Shown one piece after another: positions 50-12,904 of a stretch of 40,921 nucleotides of DNA. The stretch lies in UHGV virus genome UHGV-0093931. One strand, given 5' to 3'. Below the pieces are notes generated by a model. The model did not search any database. It was not told where the DNA came from and saw nothing but the letters and a program-made list of their open reading frames with translations. Made by a program: the position numbers and the translations under genes. Source of the stretch: a virus. How positions within the stretch are numbered: position 1 is the first letter of the stretch; each line of letters begins with the position of its first letter.

Positions 50-1363
50 TTAACTTACTGATTTTAATAATCCTCCCGTACTGCTCTCGTGGCTATGGGG
101 CATCAATGGGGCAAAATCTGCCAGCTTCTGATTCAGCATTGCGATCTGCTCTGCGCTGCTGTCAGCCATCCATGCACCGTAAACATTGAACACCATCTGC
201 GCGCTCGCATGCCCCATCTGACTGGCAATAAAACTCGGGTTTGCACCAGCAGATAATGACCAGCACGCATAGGTATGTCGTGACTGGTACGCCTTTCTGT
301 GTCTGATCCCCGCGCGCTTAAGTGCCGCTTCCCATGAGTCGCCTACTGAATCGACCCGGTAGATAAATCCGACCTGCTTACTGCGTCTGACCACATGCGG
401 GTTAAAGACAAATGTACACTCATGGTTCACCGAACGGCCGTACTCACGTAACTGAACTTCAATGTGATGTTTCCTGCCCAGCCTTGTCATCTCAGCCTGA
501 TTTTTCAGGATGCTGATTGCGGGCTGGATAAGATGCACCACTCGATCTGTGCTTGCCTCGGTTTTCGGTAGAGTGAACTCACCAAGTTTCGTATAATTAC
601 GCCTGACGGTAATTGTTCCCGCCTTCAGGTCGATATCTTCCCAGGCCAGGGAGACCAGTTCCCCGTGACGCATTCCTGTGTACACTGCTAATGACCACAG
701 GTTTTTCGTCTGCTGATGCCGGCATGCATCTATCAGGCGAATAAATTCATCACGAGACAGAGGATCTGGTTCTGCCCTGGCTTTTTTCAGAGGCTTAATT
801 CCCTCGAATGGGTTCACCTCTAAATAACCGTGATCTGCAGCAAACTGAAACATTCCGGCCATTGTCGTCATGTAATAGTTCACAGTAACAACGCTTCGCC
901 CTTTTGCCGGAGCTTTGTTTTTCGTCGGATTCTGGTAACCAGTTAGCAAATCTTTCCTAAGATACAGCAATTCCTCTTTGGTTACTGCTGACACCAGGCG
1001 ATTACCTCCGATCCTCGGCACCATATTCCTTGCGACAGACTCATAGCGATTGAATGCGTTCGCGCAGATTTCCATCCGTTTCAGATCCAGCCATTTTTCT
1101 TCAAGTTCTTTCACTGTAATGTCTTTTTTACTTACACCAAAAGCCTTGAGGTTAGGGGAGTCAGGAAACTGGGTTGCATAATCAAAGGTTCCTGTGCGGA
1201 TGGCAAAACATACTGATGTCCGCAGTTCCCCAGCTATCTTCCTGTTCTTAGCGGTGTCAGGGACACCGAGACTTTCCCTGACACGCTTACCTTTAAAATT
1301 AAACCAGATGCGTAATGTGCCACCGTGGTTTTCGACGCCTGTTGGATATGTGACTTTATCCAT
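50..1363 (-). CDS. int: tyrosine-type phage integrase
   Basis: 437-aa ORF at the left end of the prophage; C-terminal region has the His/Tyr signature of tyrosine recombinases (...RHTYACW..., ...VYGAWM...); GGAGG RBS about 8 nt upstream of the ATG at 1361-1363. Confidence 0.9.
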   Translation of the reverse strand: MDKVTYPTGVENHGGTLRIWFNFKGKRVRESLGVPDTAKNRKIAGELRTSVCFAIRTGTFDYATQFPDSPNLKAFGVSKKDITVKELEEKWLDLKRMEICANAFNRYESVARNMVPRIGGNRLVSAVTKEELLYLRKDLLTGYQNPTKNKAPAKGRSVVTVNYYMTTMAGMFQFAADHGYLEVNPFEGIKPLKKARAEPDPLSRDEFIRLIDACRHQQTKNLWSLAVYTGMRHGELVSLAWEDIDLKAGTITVRRNYTKLGEFTLPKTEASTDRVVHLIQPAISILKNQAEMTRLGRKHHIEVQLREYGRSVNHECTFVFNPHVVRRSKQVGFIYRVDSVGDSWEAALKRAGIRHRKAYQSRHTYACWSLSAGANPSFIASQMGHASAQMVFNVYGAWMADSSAEQIAMLNQKLADFAPLMPHSHESSTGGLLKSVS

Positions 1364-4026: not shown

Positions 4027-4190
4027 GGCGTTTTACCTTTACGTTCCTGTTCCAGTTGCACCAGAGACTCTTTTAATGCTGCGAACGCAGCGTCCAGTCT
4101 GGTGGCGACTTCGCGCATAAGCGGTGCATGCTTTGGTGGTAATTCAGCAATGGAGGCAAAAGCCTCCGCTACGAGCTCTTTTACCTTCAT
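4023..4190 (-). CDS. small hypothetical protein (55 aa), not in the ORF track
   Basis: Hand translation of the minus strand gives MKVKELVAEAFASIAELPPKHAPLMREVATRLDAAFAALKESLVQLEQERKGKTP; its ATG (4188-4190) overlaps the upstream stop (4187-4189) and its stop overlaps the next ATG, both as ATGA, like its neighbours. Confidence 0.5.
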   Translation of the reverse strand: MKVKELVAEAFASIAELPPKHAPLMREVATRLDAAFAALKESLVQLEQERKGKTP

Positions 4191-4726
4191 GTGGCGCATT
4201 GGCGCAGCTCCATCAGTTCGTTAAAGCGATTCATGAACAGGCCATAGGCTTGACCAGGACGGAGAGGGATAACCTGAACGAGATCAGAGCAGGGAATACC
4301 TTCGAGAATTTCCCACTTCGAACCGTCATCGATTTCCAGATCACGGCGCTCGGTAGCTAACATGGTGAGATCGGCATATTTCACGACAGCAGCTTGTTCA
4401 AGAGAGATACCGAATTTAAAGCGGATAAGACCATCAACATAAGTTTCCATGCGCTGGTAGTCAGGCAGCAATGCTTTGAGTGGTGCCGGAATGTCCTGGC
4501 AATATGCCTCCGCAGCGTCGTGCATCAACGCTTCAAAGGCGAACTCTGGCGGAACAATCTGGCTAACAAGCACAGAGTGCTGAGCCACACTGTAAAACTC
4601 TGGTAGATGCCCGGCGAATCGACAGATGTTGGAAAGAGCTGTCGCGATATCTTCAACATCGATATCGTCGATTGTGGCGGTCAGGTAGTTAAATTTTTTA
4701 CCGGATAATGTTTGAATGTAGCTCAT
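4187..4726 (-). CDS. HD-domain phosphohydrolase (YfdR-like 5'-deoxynucleotidase)
   Basis: HD motif ...LMHDAAEAY... in the translation; likely start MSYIQT at 4724-4726 with GGAG RBS (the track ORF extends to 4753). Confidence 0.7.
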   Translation of the reverse strand: MSYIQTLSGKKFNYLTATIDDIDVEDIATALSNICRFAGHLPEFYSVAQHSVLVSQIVPPEFAFEALMHDAAEAYCQDIPAPLKALLPDYQRMETYVDGLIRFKFGISLEQAAVVKYADLTMLATERRDLEIDDGSKWEILEGIPCSDLVQVIPLRPGQAYGLFMNRFNELMELRQCAT

Positions 4727-4910
4727 CGTTTTCTCCATATTGGCGCGCTGCACCGCGCAGATTTTGGTTGCACGAATCCCTCGCCGGGTGGCGATAATTA
4801 ATGGAATTACGCTTCAATAAATCCCCGCGGTGCCGGGGATTTAATGCAGAGCAATTAGGCTTTAAAGTTACCGATGAAAGTTTCCACTGATTCACCGTCG
4901 AACTTGCTGA

Positions 4911-5681
4911 TCAGCAGATCGCGGAATTCATTGGCGATCTCTTCTTCCTGGGCTTCAAGTTGGACGATGCGCAGAACAAAGCGGGTTCATCGCTGGTCAG
5001 CAGGCTGTTACGCAAGCTAAAACGTCGTTCGCCCAGACCTTCATACGGCACACATTTGAATTCAAACGCCACAGGCATTACGTCTTTGCTGCTTGCTTCA
5101 ACGCTTTGCATCAGCGATTTTTTACCAGCGAAATCACCAGTTTCATGGTCCTGCTGGGTTGCTTGCTGAATAGTGATACGACGCACAGCCTGAGCTGCCT
5201 GGGAAATCTGCATCGTATTGCCATCAGCATCAAACGCCAGCAGGTAATCGCTCCAGTCTTCCAGCCATTCGGCGATTTGCTTTTGCTTCAGACGTTGACC
5301 ATCGATCTGCAGTAACGCGCGGAAGGGCGCGGTTTTCTTCAGGGTGATCGAAGCAACGTTATCGGCGTGACCGGGATTATCCAGGTTGCCGATGTTGAAC
5401 ACTGAACGGGCGGTCATGTTGTCAGCGTCAATGAAGCAACGTGCTGGCTCACTGTCGCTGGCGTAACCTTTAGAATAACGTGCGAAATCGTCAATACTGG
5501 TTGTTGTCATTGCACCACGGAAGCGGAAACGCTCCAGAGAAAAGCGCTCAAGGCTTTCAACGCTAGTACCATCTGGCAGCAATGCGGTCGGGCAAGCCAG
5601 GCCATGAATATCATTCAGGTGGTAGCCAGAAAGGACCAGGTCTTTTACCTGCTGAAATGTACCGCTGTCTAACTGAGACAT
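4911..5681 (-). CDS. YfdQ-like (DUF2303-type) prophage protein, apparently frameshifted near the 3' end
   Basis: 256-aa ORF; a protein-like continuation (...[39 protein letters not shown]) is open in another frame down to a TAA at 4855-4857. Family call is from memory. Confidence 0.6.
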
Positions 5682-5737: not shown

Positions 5738-6109
5738 TCACTGAGCCGCTTTAAGCTTTCCATCCACCGCGCCAGTGATCCCGAACAACTGACCCTGATC
5801 TTCCTGCAGGATGGTGAGCTTCCCGCCTTTGTTGACCCACATCGGGGTTTCGGTTGTGTCCTCTTCGGAGGCTTTACCACGCGGTGTTGGGGTGCTGTAG
5901 TTCAGCTTGTGCTTGATCTTGACGCGCTTCTCTTCAACGGAATTACCCATGCGCTCAAAATCAAATGTGAGGACTACTTTGCCTTTGTTGCCGTTGTTCA
6001 GAACGCCAAGCGCGGTGGTATTAAGTGCTGCCGCGATTTTGTTCATGAACACGCCGGCATCCAGTTCGCCAAGAAAATCTGGCACTACGGTCATGCGGTC
6101 ATTACTCAT
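5738..6109 (-). CDS. hypothetical prophage early protein (YfdP-like position)
   Basis: 123-aa ORF; GAGGG RBS upstream of the ATG at 6107-6109; first clear gene after the noncoding region downstream of the putative pL. Confidence 0.6.
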   Translation of the reverse strand: MSNDRMTVVPDFLGELDAGVFMNKIAAALNTTALGVLNNGNKGKVVLTFDFERMGNSVEEKRVKIKHKLNYSTPTPRGKASEEDTTETPMWVNKGGKLTILQEDQGQLFGITGAVDGKLKAAQ

Positions 6110-6270
6110 GGTTTTACCCTCGTTAAGGCGGCTGCAACCGCCGAACTTTCTCCATACACAACAGAGAAGAGCACCTGCATTGGTCGGCGGCTTGCAGGGA
6201 CCGCTTTCTTTTTGCCCGGGTGGATTGGGTTATGAGCCCGTCGCCCGGTGATGCTCTTTTCTGTTGCGTA

Positions 6271-6340
6271 AAAAGGGCGGTACCGAGGTAGAACATTATC
6301 TTCGTCCCCCTTGCATAAGGTTGAAGGCCCAGGTACCGCC
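6271..6340 (-). terminator. candidate terminator-like structure on the leftward transcript
   Basis: Plus-strand GGGCGGTACC (6276-6285) pairs with GGTACCGCC (6332-6340) around an inner CCTT-ATGC-AAGG hairpin; on the minus strand the structure is followed by a U-run (plus-strand AAAAA at 6271-6275). The loop is large for a classical intrinsic terminator. Confidence 0.3.
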
Positions 6341-7289
6341 AAGACTACACACATGGAACTACGGTTATCACAGTCCTCAGCGTGATTTGGTTGTGGTTGC
6401 TGGTGCTGAACTCCAGCTCAGTGGCGCGGTGTTTCAATATCGTAACCGCCCGTTCCATCCGCGTTCGATCAGTCCGTATGCTCGCTTAGAACGTTTCGCC
6501 TGCTTATCTTTTCTCAACCGTTTGACGGTCAGCCCCGCCATTCACCACAACGAAGAGAGCACTGCCGGTATCCGAATTGAACGGACCTTTTCGTTGCCCA
6601 TCACCGCTATCTGTATAGCGGTGGCAGGGATTGAACCTGCCGTTATGCCTTGCTCGTCAATGCTCTCATCGTTGTGTGCTGACCTTACAGCCAGCATGGT
6701 TGGAATGAAGACGCATCACGACTTTTCACCAACTGGGCGGGATCACCATGAAAGAGCCGCCCCTTTAGCCTTTCATGCTCCCCATCTTTCTAGGTAGTCA
6801 ATGCCTCCAGTTGGGCATACAACCTTCGGTTATCGCTCCGTCGTCAGCGCCACTCTCCAGGACATTTATAAGGACCGTCTCCAAGTGGTAACTCTTCCAG
6901 TCCCGGTAAGCATCCTGCGAGATGCTTACCATGACCGGCTGATCTTCCCTGAAAAAGGCTGGCGGTTACCGGACAAACGGGAAAACACCGGGCCGCCAGA
7001 ACAGGGAGTTACTTGTTATTGCTTTGGCCTGCTTTTAACCACATCAGGCGCGGTGGTAGGTATCTTCGGGCGGGGTGCTAAGGGGGTGATTAGCCCTTGC
7101 CCTTAACACTCCTGCTGGTTTTGGTATTCCTGGCTTGGGTATCGCCACCAGCTATAGGAATTTGACTACGAGTTGCGGTTAATCAGGCCGCGCCTCTGTT
7201 ACCCCTCCCGAAGACACCTGTCAGCGAATCATCCGGTTATTCATATGCCACCGGCGGCTACTTCGTGGGCGTCCTGCCTGTTCGCTGTT

Positions 7290-7381
7290 GATGAATAAAA
7301 TCTAACTTAACTTAGCTTTTAGATCAAGAAAAAACACCAAACTATTCTTAGCTTGATGTTAAGAGGAAGGTTAGAGGTGGG
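7290..7381 (-). promoter_or_regulatory. putative OL/pL region
   Basis: AT-rich segment just downstream of cI; minus strand reads TTGATC-17 nt-TAGATT; the 14-mer CTAACTTAACTTAG resembles the CTAAGCAATCTTAG palindrome in the cI-cro intergenic region. Confidence 0.45.
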
Positions 7382-8008
7382 TTAAAGCTCGTACTGAACG
7401 CCTTTGACAACGCCGATGATCAGGCAATTACCGTTAATTGAAATGTTTGGATAGCGTGGATTTAAGGGAACTAAGAACTTTTGAGGCCCATCGATGACAA
7501 GTTTTTTTACAGTAGCCTCGTTTGTCCCATCAAGCCTGGCTACGACTATCTTTCCATGAAGTGGCTCTGCATCTGGATCTACTATGACTGTTGCCCCTTC
7601 AGGGATTGTCGGGAGGCCATTAGGGTTTGTCATCGAATCACCTTTAACCTCCAATGCAAAGGAGCTATCCCCTATGCGGAGTGATGTCTCTATCCACTTA
7701 TCTACTTCGCTGAAAACTTCTGCTGCTTTACATTCTGTAAACTGTCCAGCCTGAACCCAGGATATCACCGGAATCCTTCGCATCTTGGTTATCAGATTGC
7801 CTTCAAATTCAGTGCCATAAAGTATGTAATCAATTGATGTGTTGAAATACTTTGCAAGTTTCGCAAGTGACTCGCCTCCAGGCACATTAACGTCTTTTTC
7901 CCAATACCCAACCGCCACATCACTAACACCGCAGAACTTACCCAGTTCTTTCTGCGAGGTTTTGGTTATGCGCCTGAGAGCTTTGATGCGCTGACCGACA
8001 GTTTCCAT
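7382..8008 (-). CDS. cI: CI-type repressor (XRE-family HTH with LexA-like S24 peptidase domain)
   Basis: 208 aa; N-terminal HTH (...TSQKELGKFCGVSDVAVGYWE...) and C-terminal autocleavage-type domain; divergent from a cro-like gene. Confidence 0.9.
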   Translation of the reverse strand: METVGQRIKALRRITKTSQKELGKFCGVSDVAVGYWEKDVNVPGGESLAKLAKYFNTSIDYILYGTEFEGNLITKMRRIPVISWVQAGQFTECKAAEVFSEVDKWIETSLRIGDSSFALEVKGDSMTNPNGLPTIPEGATVIVDPDAEPLHGKIVVARLDGTNEATVKKLVIDGPQKFLVPLNPRYPNISINGNCLIIGVVKGVQYEL

Positions 8009-10977: not shown

Positions 10978-12904
10978 GATTATCGTTGATAACTTTGCTG
11001 GTGGCGGTGGTGCATCAACGGGTATTGAACTGGCGATCGGACGCAGCGTGGATATTGCGATCAACCACGACGAAAACGCCATTGCGATGCACAAGACGAA
11101 CCACCCTGACACACTGCATTACTGTGAATCCGTATTTGACGTGGATCCGGTAGCCGCCACCGGCGGCAATCCTGTTGGCCTGGCATGGTTTAGCCCGGAC
11201 TGCCGACACTTCTCAAAGGCCAAAGGCGCAAAGCCTGTGAAAAAAGAGATACGCGGTCTGGCCTGGATCGTTCTGCGTTGGGCACTGGCGAAGCGACCGC
11301 GCGTGATGATGCTGGAGAACGTGGAAGAGTTTAAAACGTGGGGACCGCTGCTGGCCGATGAAATGCGTCCAGACCCTGCCCGCACTGGCGAAACATTCAA
11401 TGCTTTTGTCGGCATGCTTTCCACTGGCATTCCTGCCGATCACCCGGCACTGGCGGAGGTCTGCGAATTTCTTGCTATTGATCCTGGCAGCACGCAGGCC
11501 AAACAGCTGGTGGAAGGGCTTGGATATGATGTTGATTATCGCGAACTGCGCGCGTGTGATTACGGCGCGCCGACGATCCGCAAACGCTTCTTCATGGTTA
11601 TGCGCTGCGATGGTTGCCCTATTCAGTGGCCTGTTGTAACCCATGGGGATCCCAAGTCACTGGAGGTGCAGAGCGGCAGGCTGATGCCATGGCGTACCGC
11701 TGCGGAATGTATCGACTGGAATGTTCCGGCTCTGTCCATCTTCGACCGCAAAAAACCGCTGGCAGAGAACACTCTGAAGCGGATCGCACGCGGCATACAG
11801 CGCTTTGTTATCGAAAGTGCGTCGCCGTTTATCGTGAAGTGCAACCACACGAGCTCAAAAAATGCGTATGACGCTTTTCGCGGACAGTCACTGAATGAGC
11901 CATTACAGACCATTACTAAAAAACTCGGCTACGCGTTAGCCGTTCCACACCTTACAAAATTCCGCACTGGCGCAACCGGGCAGCCCGTTACCGAACCTGT
12001 TCCGACGGTAACCGCTGGCACGTCAAAACGCCCGGGCGGGAACGGGCATGCTCTCGGGATTGTTGAGGCTGCATTGACACCATTCCTGGCGGGTAATGGT
12101 GGTAGTGAATACCAGGCTAAACCGCGCCCGCTGAATAAACCTGCTCATACCATTCTGAAGCAATCCCGAGCCTGTCTTGTTGCGCCAGTGATAGCCCGCC
12201 AGTTTGGGGCCAGCGTCGGCCACCGTGCAGACGAACCGAGCGCAACCATCACCGCTGGTGGTGGCGGTAAATCTCAACTGGTAACGCCTACGCTGATTCA
12301 GATGGGTTATGGCGAACGACCTGGACAAGAACCGCGTGTGCTGCGACTGGATAACCCGCTGGGGACCGTTACTGCAGGCGGAAATAAATTTGCGACGGTG
12401 AGCGCATTCCTGGCGAAACACTACGGCGGTAACTATACGGGGCCGGGTGTCAGTATGGATGAACCCGCGCATTCAGTGACCACTGTCGACCATCATGCGG
12501 TAGTTGCCTCTCATCTGGTGAAACTGCGTGGAACATGCCGCGACGGGCAACGCCTTGATGTGCCAATGCCAACAATCACTGCTGGTGGCCAACACGTGGG
12601 TGAGGTACGCACATTTCTCGAGACGTATTGCGGGGAAAGTGACGATGAATGGCTGGTAACGATCGATGGGGTTAAATACCAGATCGTTGATATCGGAATG
12701 CGCATGTTGCAGCCGCATGAACTCTACAAAGCGCAGGGCTTCCCGGATGGTTACGTTATTGATCAGGACTACCGTGGAAATCGCTATGCAAAAGATAAGC
12801 AGGTAGCCCGCTGCGGTAATGCGGTACCACCACCATTCGCCCGGGCGCTGGTTGAGGCAAATCTTCCGGAACTGTGTGCAGTGCAACAGCAGGAGGTGGC
12901 ATGA
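10970..12904 (+). CDS. DNA (cytosine-5)-methyltransferase with large variable region
   Basis: 644 aa; motif I FAGGGG, ENV motif (MLENVEEF) and C-terminal ...RCGNAVPP... (motif X); the catalytic Cys is in an atypical ...SPDCRHFS... context; long insert between conserved blocks. Confidence 0.8.
   Translation: MREIIVDNFAGGGGASTGIELAIGRSVDIAINHDENAIAMHKTNHPDTLHYCESVFDVDPVAATGGNPVGLAWFSPDCRHFSKAKGAKPVKKEIRGLAWIVLRWALAKRPRVMMLENVEEFKTWGPLLADEMRPDPARTGETFNAFVGMLSTGIPADHPALAEVCEFLAIDPGSTQAKQLVEGLGYDVDYRELRACDYGAPTIRKRFFMVMRCDGCPIQWPVVTHGDPKSLEVQSGRLMPWRTAAECIDWNVPALSIFDRKKPLAENTLKRIARGIQRFVIESASPFIVKCNHTSSKNAYDAFRGQSLNEPLQTITKKLGYALAVPHLTKFRTGATGQPVTEPVPTVTAGTSKRPGGNGHALGIVEAALTPFLAGNGGSEYQAKPRPLNKPAHTILKQSRACLVAPVIARQFGASVGHRADEPSATITAGGGGKSQLVTPTLIQMGYGERPGQEPRVLRLDNPLGTVTAGGNKFATVSAFLAKHYGGNYTGPGVSMDEPAHSVTTVDHHAVVASHLVKLRGTCRDGQRLDVPMPTITAGGQHVGEVRTFLETYCGESDDEWLVTIDGVKYQIVDIGMRMLQPHELYKAQGFPDGYVIDQDYRGNRYAKDKQVARCGNAVPPPFARALVEANLPELCAVQQQEVA

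Follow-up and report, generated by a model that had tools for sequence, protein, structure and literature searches.

Does the yfdQ gene of this prophage carry a real frameshift, does its assembly contain an error, or is it a recoding site? The gene lies in a 40,921-nt stretch of DNA, the UHGV virus genome UHGV-0093931, which was analyzed whole and is referred to here as the window. A preliminary description of its sequence had reported a YfdQ-like ORF that stops while another frame is still open and protein-like. It proposed a single-base indel around 4975-4990 and offered a pseudogene, a sequencing error, or a recoding site as explanations. The lesion involves the following features.

4911..5681, minus strand: frameshifted yfdQ (DUF2303) ORF, from the ORF list, PF10065, and the alignment to 9o7m
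4982..4983, minus strand: 1-nt deletion site, with a T lost between C4983 and G4982, from pairwise and multiple DNA alignments
4914..4982, minus strand: new out-of-frame tail of 23 codons, from translation and codon usage
4855..4982, minus strand: remnant of the ancestral C-terminal coding region, 42 codons with the T restored, from homologue tails and 9o7m

The ORF encodes 256 aa. It contains 233 family-conserved residues followed by 23 out-of-frame residues, and it ends with a TGA at 4913..4911. It departs from the family alignment after residue 233 (Pro233). The match to PF10065 was 196.6 bits (E = 6e-58), and the Pfam gathering cutoff is 26.6. The ORF is thus clearly a DUF2303/YfdQ protein. 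It shares this strong profile match with the named members of the family (PF10065; PHROG 210; the E. coli K-12 CPS-53 YfdQ, 9o7m; and Sb36 of phage ST64B), and the identity of the window's yfdQ to named YfdQ proteins is 37 to 98%. The match covers profile positions 28 to 228 of 269 only, which indicates that the domain's C-terminal part is missing from this frame. As encoded, the ORF does not contain the C-terminal strand-helix-strand of a full-length DUF2303 domain (profile positions ~229 to 269). Its alignment to 9o7m, the solved E. coli YfdQ in the PDB, ends at residue 235 with 120.3 bits. With the T restored in silico, the gene encodes a normal 275-aa protein. The 9o7m match then runs to residue 273, the tail aligns to 9o7m residues 233 to 272, and the score is 145.1 bits (+25 bits).

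The 9o7m entry contains 36 chains, which implies a large homo-oligomeric assembly. No paper describing this YfdQ assembly was found in a literature search.

Intact alleles read GAACCCTGCTTTG at the deletion site, and the window reads GAACCCGCTTTG (GAACCC[T]GCTTTG). This single T was the only gap in the 827-nt yfdQ alignment in all comparisons made. A compensating second indel was ruled out, as each alignment contained one gap only. In eight E. coli chromosomes, a gene annotated as "YfdQ family protein" is 93.5% identical, with a span of 922 nt versus 921 nt in the window. The YfdQ of E. coli ECONIH4 is 275 aa. Its gene has the T, which is the sole gap in its DNA alignment to the window. The T is kept in all 8 chromosomes and, in a 40-nt pattern scan that allowed either allele, in 13 of 13 metagenome contigs and 32 of 33 viral contigs (the exception was the IMG/VR contig L020). 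These intact alleles are 828 nt and encode 275 aa. In the species-representative genomes, a scan returned no match to either allele.

We collected 45 intact DNA alleles, which were 83.6 to 97% identical. All were 828 nt with a stop at codon 276, and the closest had 97.0% DNA identity to the window's yfdQ. Among 14 alleles compared, 8 substitutions were private to the window, of which 7 were synonymous. Both private substitutions in the tail were synonymous in the old frame.

The ancestral tail ends at an old-frame TAA at 4857..4855, and this region is now untranslated or mistranslated. A 43-codon open alternative frame is by itself unremarkable, since the wrong frames of the yfdQ body contain open runs of 42 and 58 codons. 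The downstream frame is real by homology, as it matches the C terminus of every intact homologue. The mean log relative codon usage over 4914..4982 is -0.26 in the new frame; read in the old frame, this DNA scores +0.23, and the gene body scores +0.14. The old-frame codon usage of the ancestral tail is still good, and decay is not yet seen.

The preliminary description was accurate in its particulars. The ORF coordinates and 256-aa length, the other frame open to the TAA, the assignment to YfdQ, and the protein-like character of that frame all hold. The missing T lies inside the interval proposed for the indel. An alignment to intact homologues, which it had suggested as the way to locate the indel, placed a single gap at 4983/4982.

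The lost tail is conserved. Among the nearest homologues, 118 of 120 were 275 to 276 aa. The few shorter protein records are most simply read as fragments arising at contig ends or from start-site choice. For distant relatives, we searched 1.84 billion cluster representatives exhaustively and used the best 150 (33 to 58% identity). The tail aligned to query residue 259 or beyond in 145 of these best 150 (249 to 288 aa), and the C termini of those 145 lay within a few residues of one another's end point. The five exceptions (155 to 213 aa) aligned to just the N-terminal or middle portion of the query, and we took them to be fragments. The preliminary description had named homologues ending with the 256-aa ORF, with the downstream frame unconserved, as evidence against a frameshift; only copies of the same allele end there, and the tail is conserved family-wide. 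The pN/pS ratio among intact alleles was 0.29 in the tail and 0.07 in the body, and these values indicate that the tail is under purifying selection among intact alleles.

We modeled the intact relative P0001 with AlphaFold using a shallow alignment of 38 sequences that were 85 to 97% identical. The model had a mean pLDDT of 55 and a pTM of 0.47 and was used solely for the secondary structure of the tail. It contained a predicted strand at 234 to 238, a helix at 243 to 260, and a strand at 266 to 271, all at moderate confidence. The helix and the last strand were among the most confident parts of the model. A Foldseek search of the model against the PDB returned nothing significant; the top matches were Hsp90 N domains with an E value of ~0.1 and a TM score of 0.17, which are meaningless. 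The search with this moderate model did not recover 9o7m, so fold-level inference was dropped. A single-sequence AlphaFold model of the 256-aa product was discarded (pLDDT 30). Since the tail is conserved family-wide and has predicted secondary structure, its absence likely impairs YfdQ function, in part or entirely. Residues 1 to 233 remain unaltered, with a match to most of the DUF2303 profile, so the 256-aa product may still be partly functional.

The same frameshifted allele was found repeatedly. Fourteen contigs in assemblies from ENA, JGI, and Logan encode precisely the 256-aa product. They represent no fewer than five sample accessions, and in the protein collection the product has JGI/IMG, Logan, and ENA as its sources. 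We fetched five loci from samples ERZ28657050, SRR34348976, JGI 3300029782, ERZ27277669, and SRR11402676. All five contained an identical 1,101-nt region that includes the deletion. The DNA of loci L002 to L006 and of L020 is identical to the window at the deletion region. Four of the five fetched loci were 100% identical to the window across 4 to 11.7 kb of shared sequence, and L004 (JGI 3300029782) was 99.96% identical over 8.8 kb. The lesion is therefore reproducible across 14 contigs and three assembly resources. It also has the two other marks of a frameshift pseudogene, an indel relative to intact orthologues and homology in the shifted frame, where the tail is identical or near-identical in the -1 frame. 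The deletion site, CCC|GC, contains no homopolymer. A repaired version of the window's exact allele was absent from a collection of 15 billion proteins. We conclude that the deletion is, on this comparative evidence, best taken as a real, inherited mutation of one prophage lineage. The carriers are all one near-identical lineage, so the recurrence argues for inheritance and not for independent origin or selection.

Some carriers are rearranged. L003 (Logan SRR34348976) is this prophage minus 7.36 kb of internal sequence; the deletion is clean, and its junction at locus position 5151/5152 corresponds to 13887|6531 of the window. It has lost the repressor, cro, the replication genes, and both DNA methylases, and it is a defective derivative. 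Left of window position ~2880, L004 and L020 contain a different integration module, with a DUF4224 gene and a 336-aa integrase, that adjoins a CDP-alcohol phosphatidyltransferase gene. The frameshifted yfdQ has thus traveled through a module swap.

The gene belongs to the leftward early operon, in which we placed the following features.

5738..6109, minus strand: yfdP-like gene, 123 aa, upstream neighbor in the same operon (PF27127 YfdP; phrog_204)
4187..4726, minus strand: HD-family hydrolase (YfdR/YfbR-like 5'-nucleotidase), 179 aa, downstream neighbor (phrog_318)
7382..8008, minus strand: cI-like repressor, from the gene order of the leftward early operon
50..1363, minus strand: integrase, from the gene order of the leftward early operon

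The minus-strand order is cI-like repressor, yfdP, yfdQ, HD-family 5'-nucleotidase, several small ORFs, and then the distal genes. The distal genes encode a dATP/dGTP pyrophosphohydrolase, an Rv2179c-like 3'-5' exonuclease, and the integrase. The gene at 4187..4726 belongs to phrog_318, deoxyribonucleoside 5'-monophosphate phosphatase, and its exact protein appears as "HD family hydrolase" in C. freundii records. The cluster yfdP-yfdQ-yfbR/yfdR has been described for ST64B-like lambdoid phages, in which YfdP and YfdQ are without known function (PMC12315714). The window shows this arrangement as well, with yfdP, yfdQ, and the HD hydrolase gene in that order in a lambdoid early-left operon. It differs from the intact YfdQ family (about 264 to 288 aa, with the tail aligned) in that its copy is without the C-terminal 42 residues owing to the 1-nt deletion. 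The rest of the 40.9-kb prophage contains long uninterrupted ORFs of plausible sizes in the ORF list.

The HD hydrolase has an alternative start. The mechanical ORF at 4187..4753 on the minus strand begins with a GTG at 4753 and encodes 188 aa; gene callers and NCBI use the ATG at 4726, which gives 179 aa.

The window's exact integrase, HBL6738214.1, and HD hydrolase, HBL6738221.1, are present in NCBI C. freundii assemblies, with further records in the HBM9352782 and HCL5691708 series. The nearest homologues, both of these exact proteins, and a yecE-like gene in the flank all take their names from C. freundii-complex records, which point to the Citrobacter freundii complex as the host. NCBI has no protein record of the 256-aa product, though it has records of its neighbors. 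This absence would fit PGAP treating yfdQ as a pseudogene.

The flanking gene was found in the host DNA of L002, at 11659..12384, just past window position 1. It is a yecE-like DUF72 gene beside the integrase, and it encodes 241 aa versus 272 aa in most Citrobacter copies. The shorter length suggests insertion of the prophage at or within the 5' end of yecE.

A 1.27-kb interval (6110..7381) separates yfdP from the cI-like repressor. It contains only two ORFs, both on the plus strand and neither with a Pfam match.

6393..6797, plus strand: ORF of 134 aa, from the ORF list
6801..7106, plus strand: ORF of 101 aa, from the ORF list

An E. coli relative has a ClpX-type zinc-finger gene at this place. 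The interval could be a moron or a decayed region.

The deletion lies inside a block of low diversity.

4727..5058, minus strand: low-diversity block of ~330 nt, the yfdQ 3' end plus the intergenic region between yfdQ and the HD hydrolase gene, from nucleotide diversity and identity

The block takes in the last ~200 nt of yfdQ and extends up to the HD hydrolase start. Its nucleotide diversity is 0.003 to 0.048, compared with 0.05 to 0.13 upstream and 0.15 to 0.30 downstream. In 45 loci, the block is 94.6 to 99.4% identical to the window; the yfdQ body is down to 81%. The HD gene in these loci is of two allele types, with ~95% and ~68% identity to the window. The block is probably a mosaic junction from lambdoid module exchange, or it may hide a conserved noncoding element. 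A hairpin, AAATCCCCG-GCACCG-CGGGGATTT, is present at 4819..4842 on the minus strand, 12 nt past the ancestral yfdQ stop. It is near-invariant in relatives and resembles a terminator or attenuator separating yfdQ from the HD hydrolase gene.

Recoding could restore the old frame in one zone only.

4913..4986, minus strand: 73-nt zone, the only one in which the old frame could be rescued by a -1 shift; free of recoding signals

The zone is bounded by an old-frame TGA at 4989..4987 and the new-frame TGA at 4913..4911. We found no slippery heptamer of the form X_XXY_YYZ in it, and the only heptamer of the gene lies beyond the zero-frame stop. It contains no homopolymer of 5 or more; the only one in the gene is an A6 at 5123. 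The indel site CCC|GC has neither a long homopolymer nor a short tandem repeat of the kind associated with slippage or phase variation. The RNA from 5000 to 4840 has a minimum free energy of -40.8 kcal/mol versus a shuffle mean of -37.5 (z = -0.86) and gives no indication of a stimulatory structure. An Rfam scan of the whole window returned no match, and a promoter and terminator consensus scan around yfdQ yielded nothing of use at the frameshift. A two-frame architecture was seen in no homologue; the DNA alleles are single 828-nt ORFs, and the distant representatives are single proteins with the tail. Separate translation of the tail was ruled out. No ATG, GTG, or TTG occurs in the old frame after the TGA at 4989..4987 until a late GTG, only 10 codons before the stop.

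Of the explanations offered at the outset, a sequencing or assembly error, which would mean that the actual DNA retains the T and encodes a full-length YfdQ, is very unlikely. Errors of this kind typically take the form of a single-base indel, and the 275-aa sequence obtained by repair would look entirely normal for the family. However, independent assemblies share the allele, as identical DNA on the 14 contigs, and this disfavors an error. The same 40-nt context was assembled with the T in 45 other contigs, so the local sequence does not produce a systematic deletion artifact; the lack of a homopolymer and of the repaired allele in the protein collection also argues against an error. Recoding would require a -1 ribosomal frameshift, whether programmed or fortuitous, or else transcriptional slippage in the 73-nt zone, with some full-length-like YfdQ made. 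The old frame is pristine with good codon usage, and the zone contains U_UUG and G_AAG followed by AGA. The sequence U_UUG, and G_AAG before the rare Arg codon AGA, could in principle permit weak P-site slippage. Such low-level noncanonical slippage, yielding a minor full-length-like product beside the truncated one, is scarcely credible here; if true, it would give this prophage lineage a two-product YfdQ. A shift at AAG would leave ~14 wrong residues in place of a conserved strand. A recent deletion would be a simpler account of the pristine old frame. The window shares only a superficial geometry with programmed -1 frameshift sites such as dnaX and the phage tail-assembly chaperone G/GT, namely, two overlapping coding-looking frames with the downstream one in -1. 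Unlike them, it has no slippery heptamer, stimulatory structure, or conserved two-frame arrangement. Since the signals are absent and every homologue is one uninterrupted ORF, which means that the frameshift is not a family feature, we regard recoding in any form as extremely improbable.

It is also possible, though improbable, that the truncation is tolerated or selected, either because the 256-aa form keeps activity or because loss of yfdQ benefits the lysogen, for example, by disabling a module able to inhibit host replication initiation. In E. coli K-12, multicopy yfdQRST inhibits replication initiation, an overexpression effect on DnaA-dependent initiation for which yfdQ is required (PMC4776307). 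The allele persists in a lineage found across many samples, rearranged derivatives included, and elsewhere in the gene the pattern is one of purifying selection, as most private changes are synonymous. Those substitutions may, however, predate the deletion, and the carriers are essentially one clone, so prevalence is uninformative about selection. The lost tail is conserved throughout the family, and no other frameshifted lineage was present among the relatives examined, in which all 45 intact DNA alleles retained the full 828 nt.

We consider it highly probable that an inherited T deletion has made yfdQ a frameshift pseudogene or a gene for a C-terminally crippled protein, without recoding. 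In this ST64B-like lambdoid prophage, yfdQ has lost a single T between 4983 and 4982. Translation would proceed normally up to Pro233, continue through 23 unrelated residues, and stop 56 nt early, and the conserved C-terminal strand-helix-strand of 42 residues would not be produced. The frameshift would then have been inherited within one prophage lineage, with yfdQ as an accessory gene. The mutation appears to be recent, which would explain why the old frame looks pristine, and neutral or hitchhiking. The pseudogene offered by the preliminary description therefore stands, with a crippled allele as its variant, and the error and recoding that it also offered do not, the former because the allele recurs and the latter for want of signals and conservation.

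The lesion resembles the frameshift pseudogenes of prophage accessory genes that PGAP marks as "frameshifted; pseudo." It shares with them one indel relative to intact orthologues, a downstream frame that is still homologous, a premature stop, and a lineage-inherited mutation. It shows nothing distinctive compared with them and is an ordinary lesion. In annotation, this locus should be labeled a frameshifted pseudogene of yfdQ with the deletion at 4982/4983; labels such as 256-aa protein, recoding site, or assembly error should be avoided. Beyond annotation, the frameshift matters little. It is a natural C-terminal truncation in a family with a solved structure (9o7m) and could provide a ready-made allele for studies of the YfdQ tail. 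The lineage-specific deletion is also a handy marker for following this C. freundii prophage across samples.
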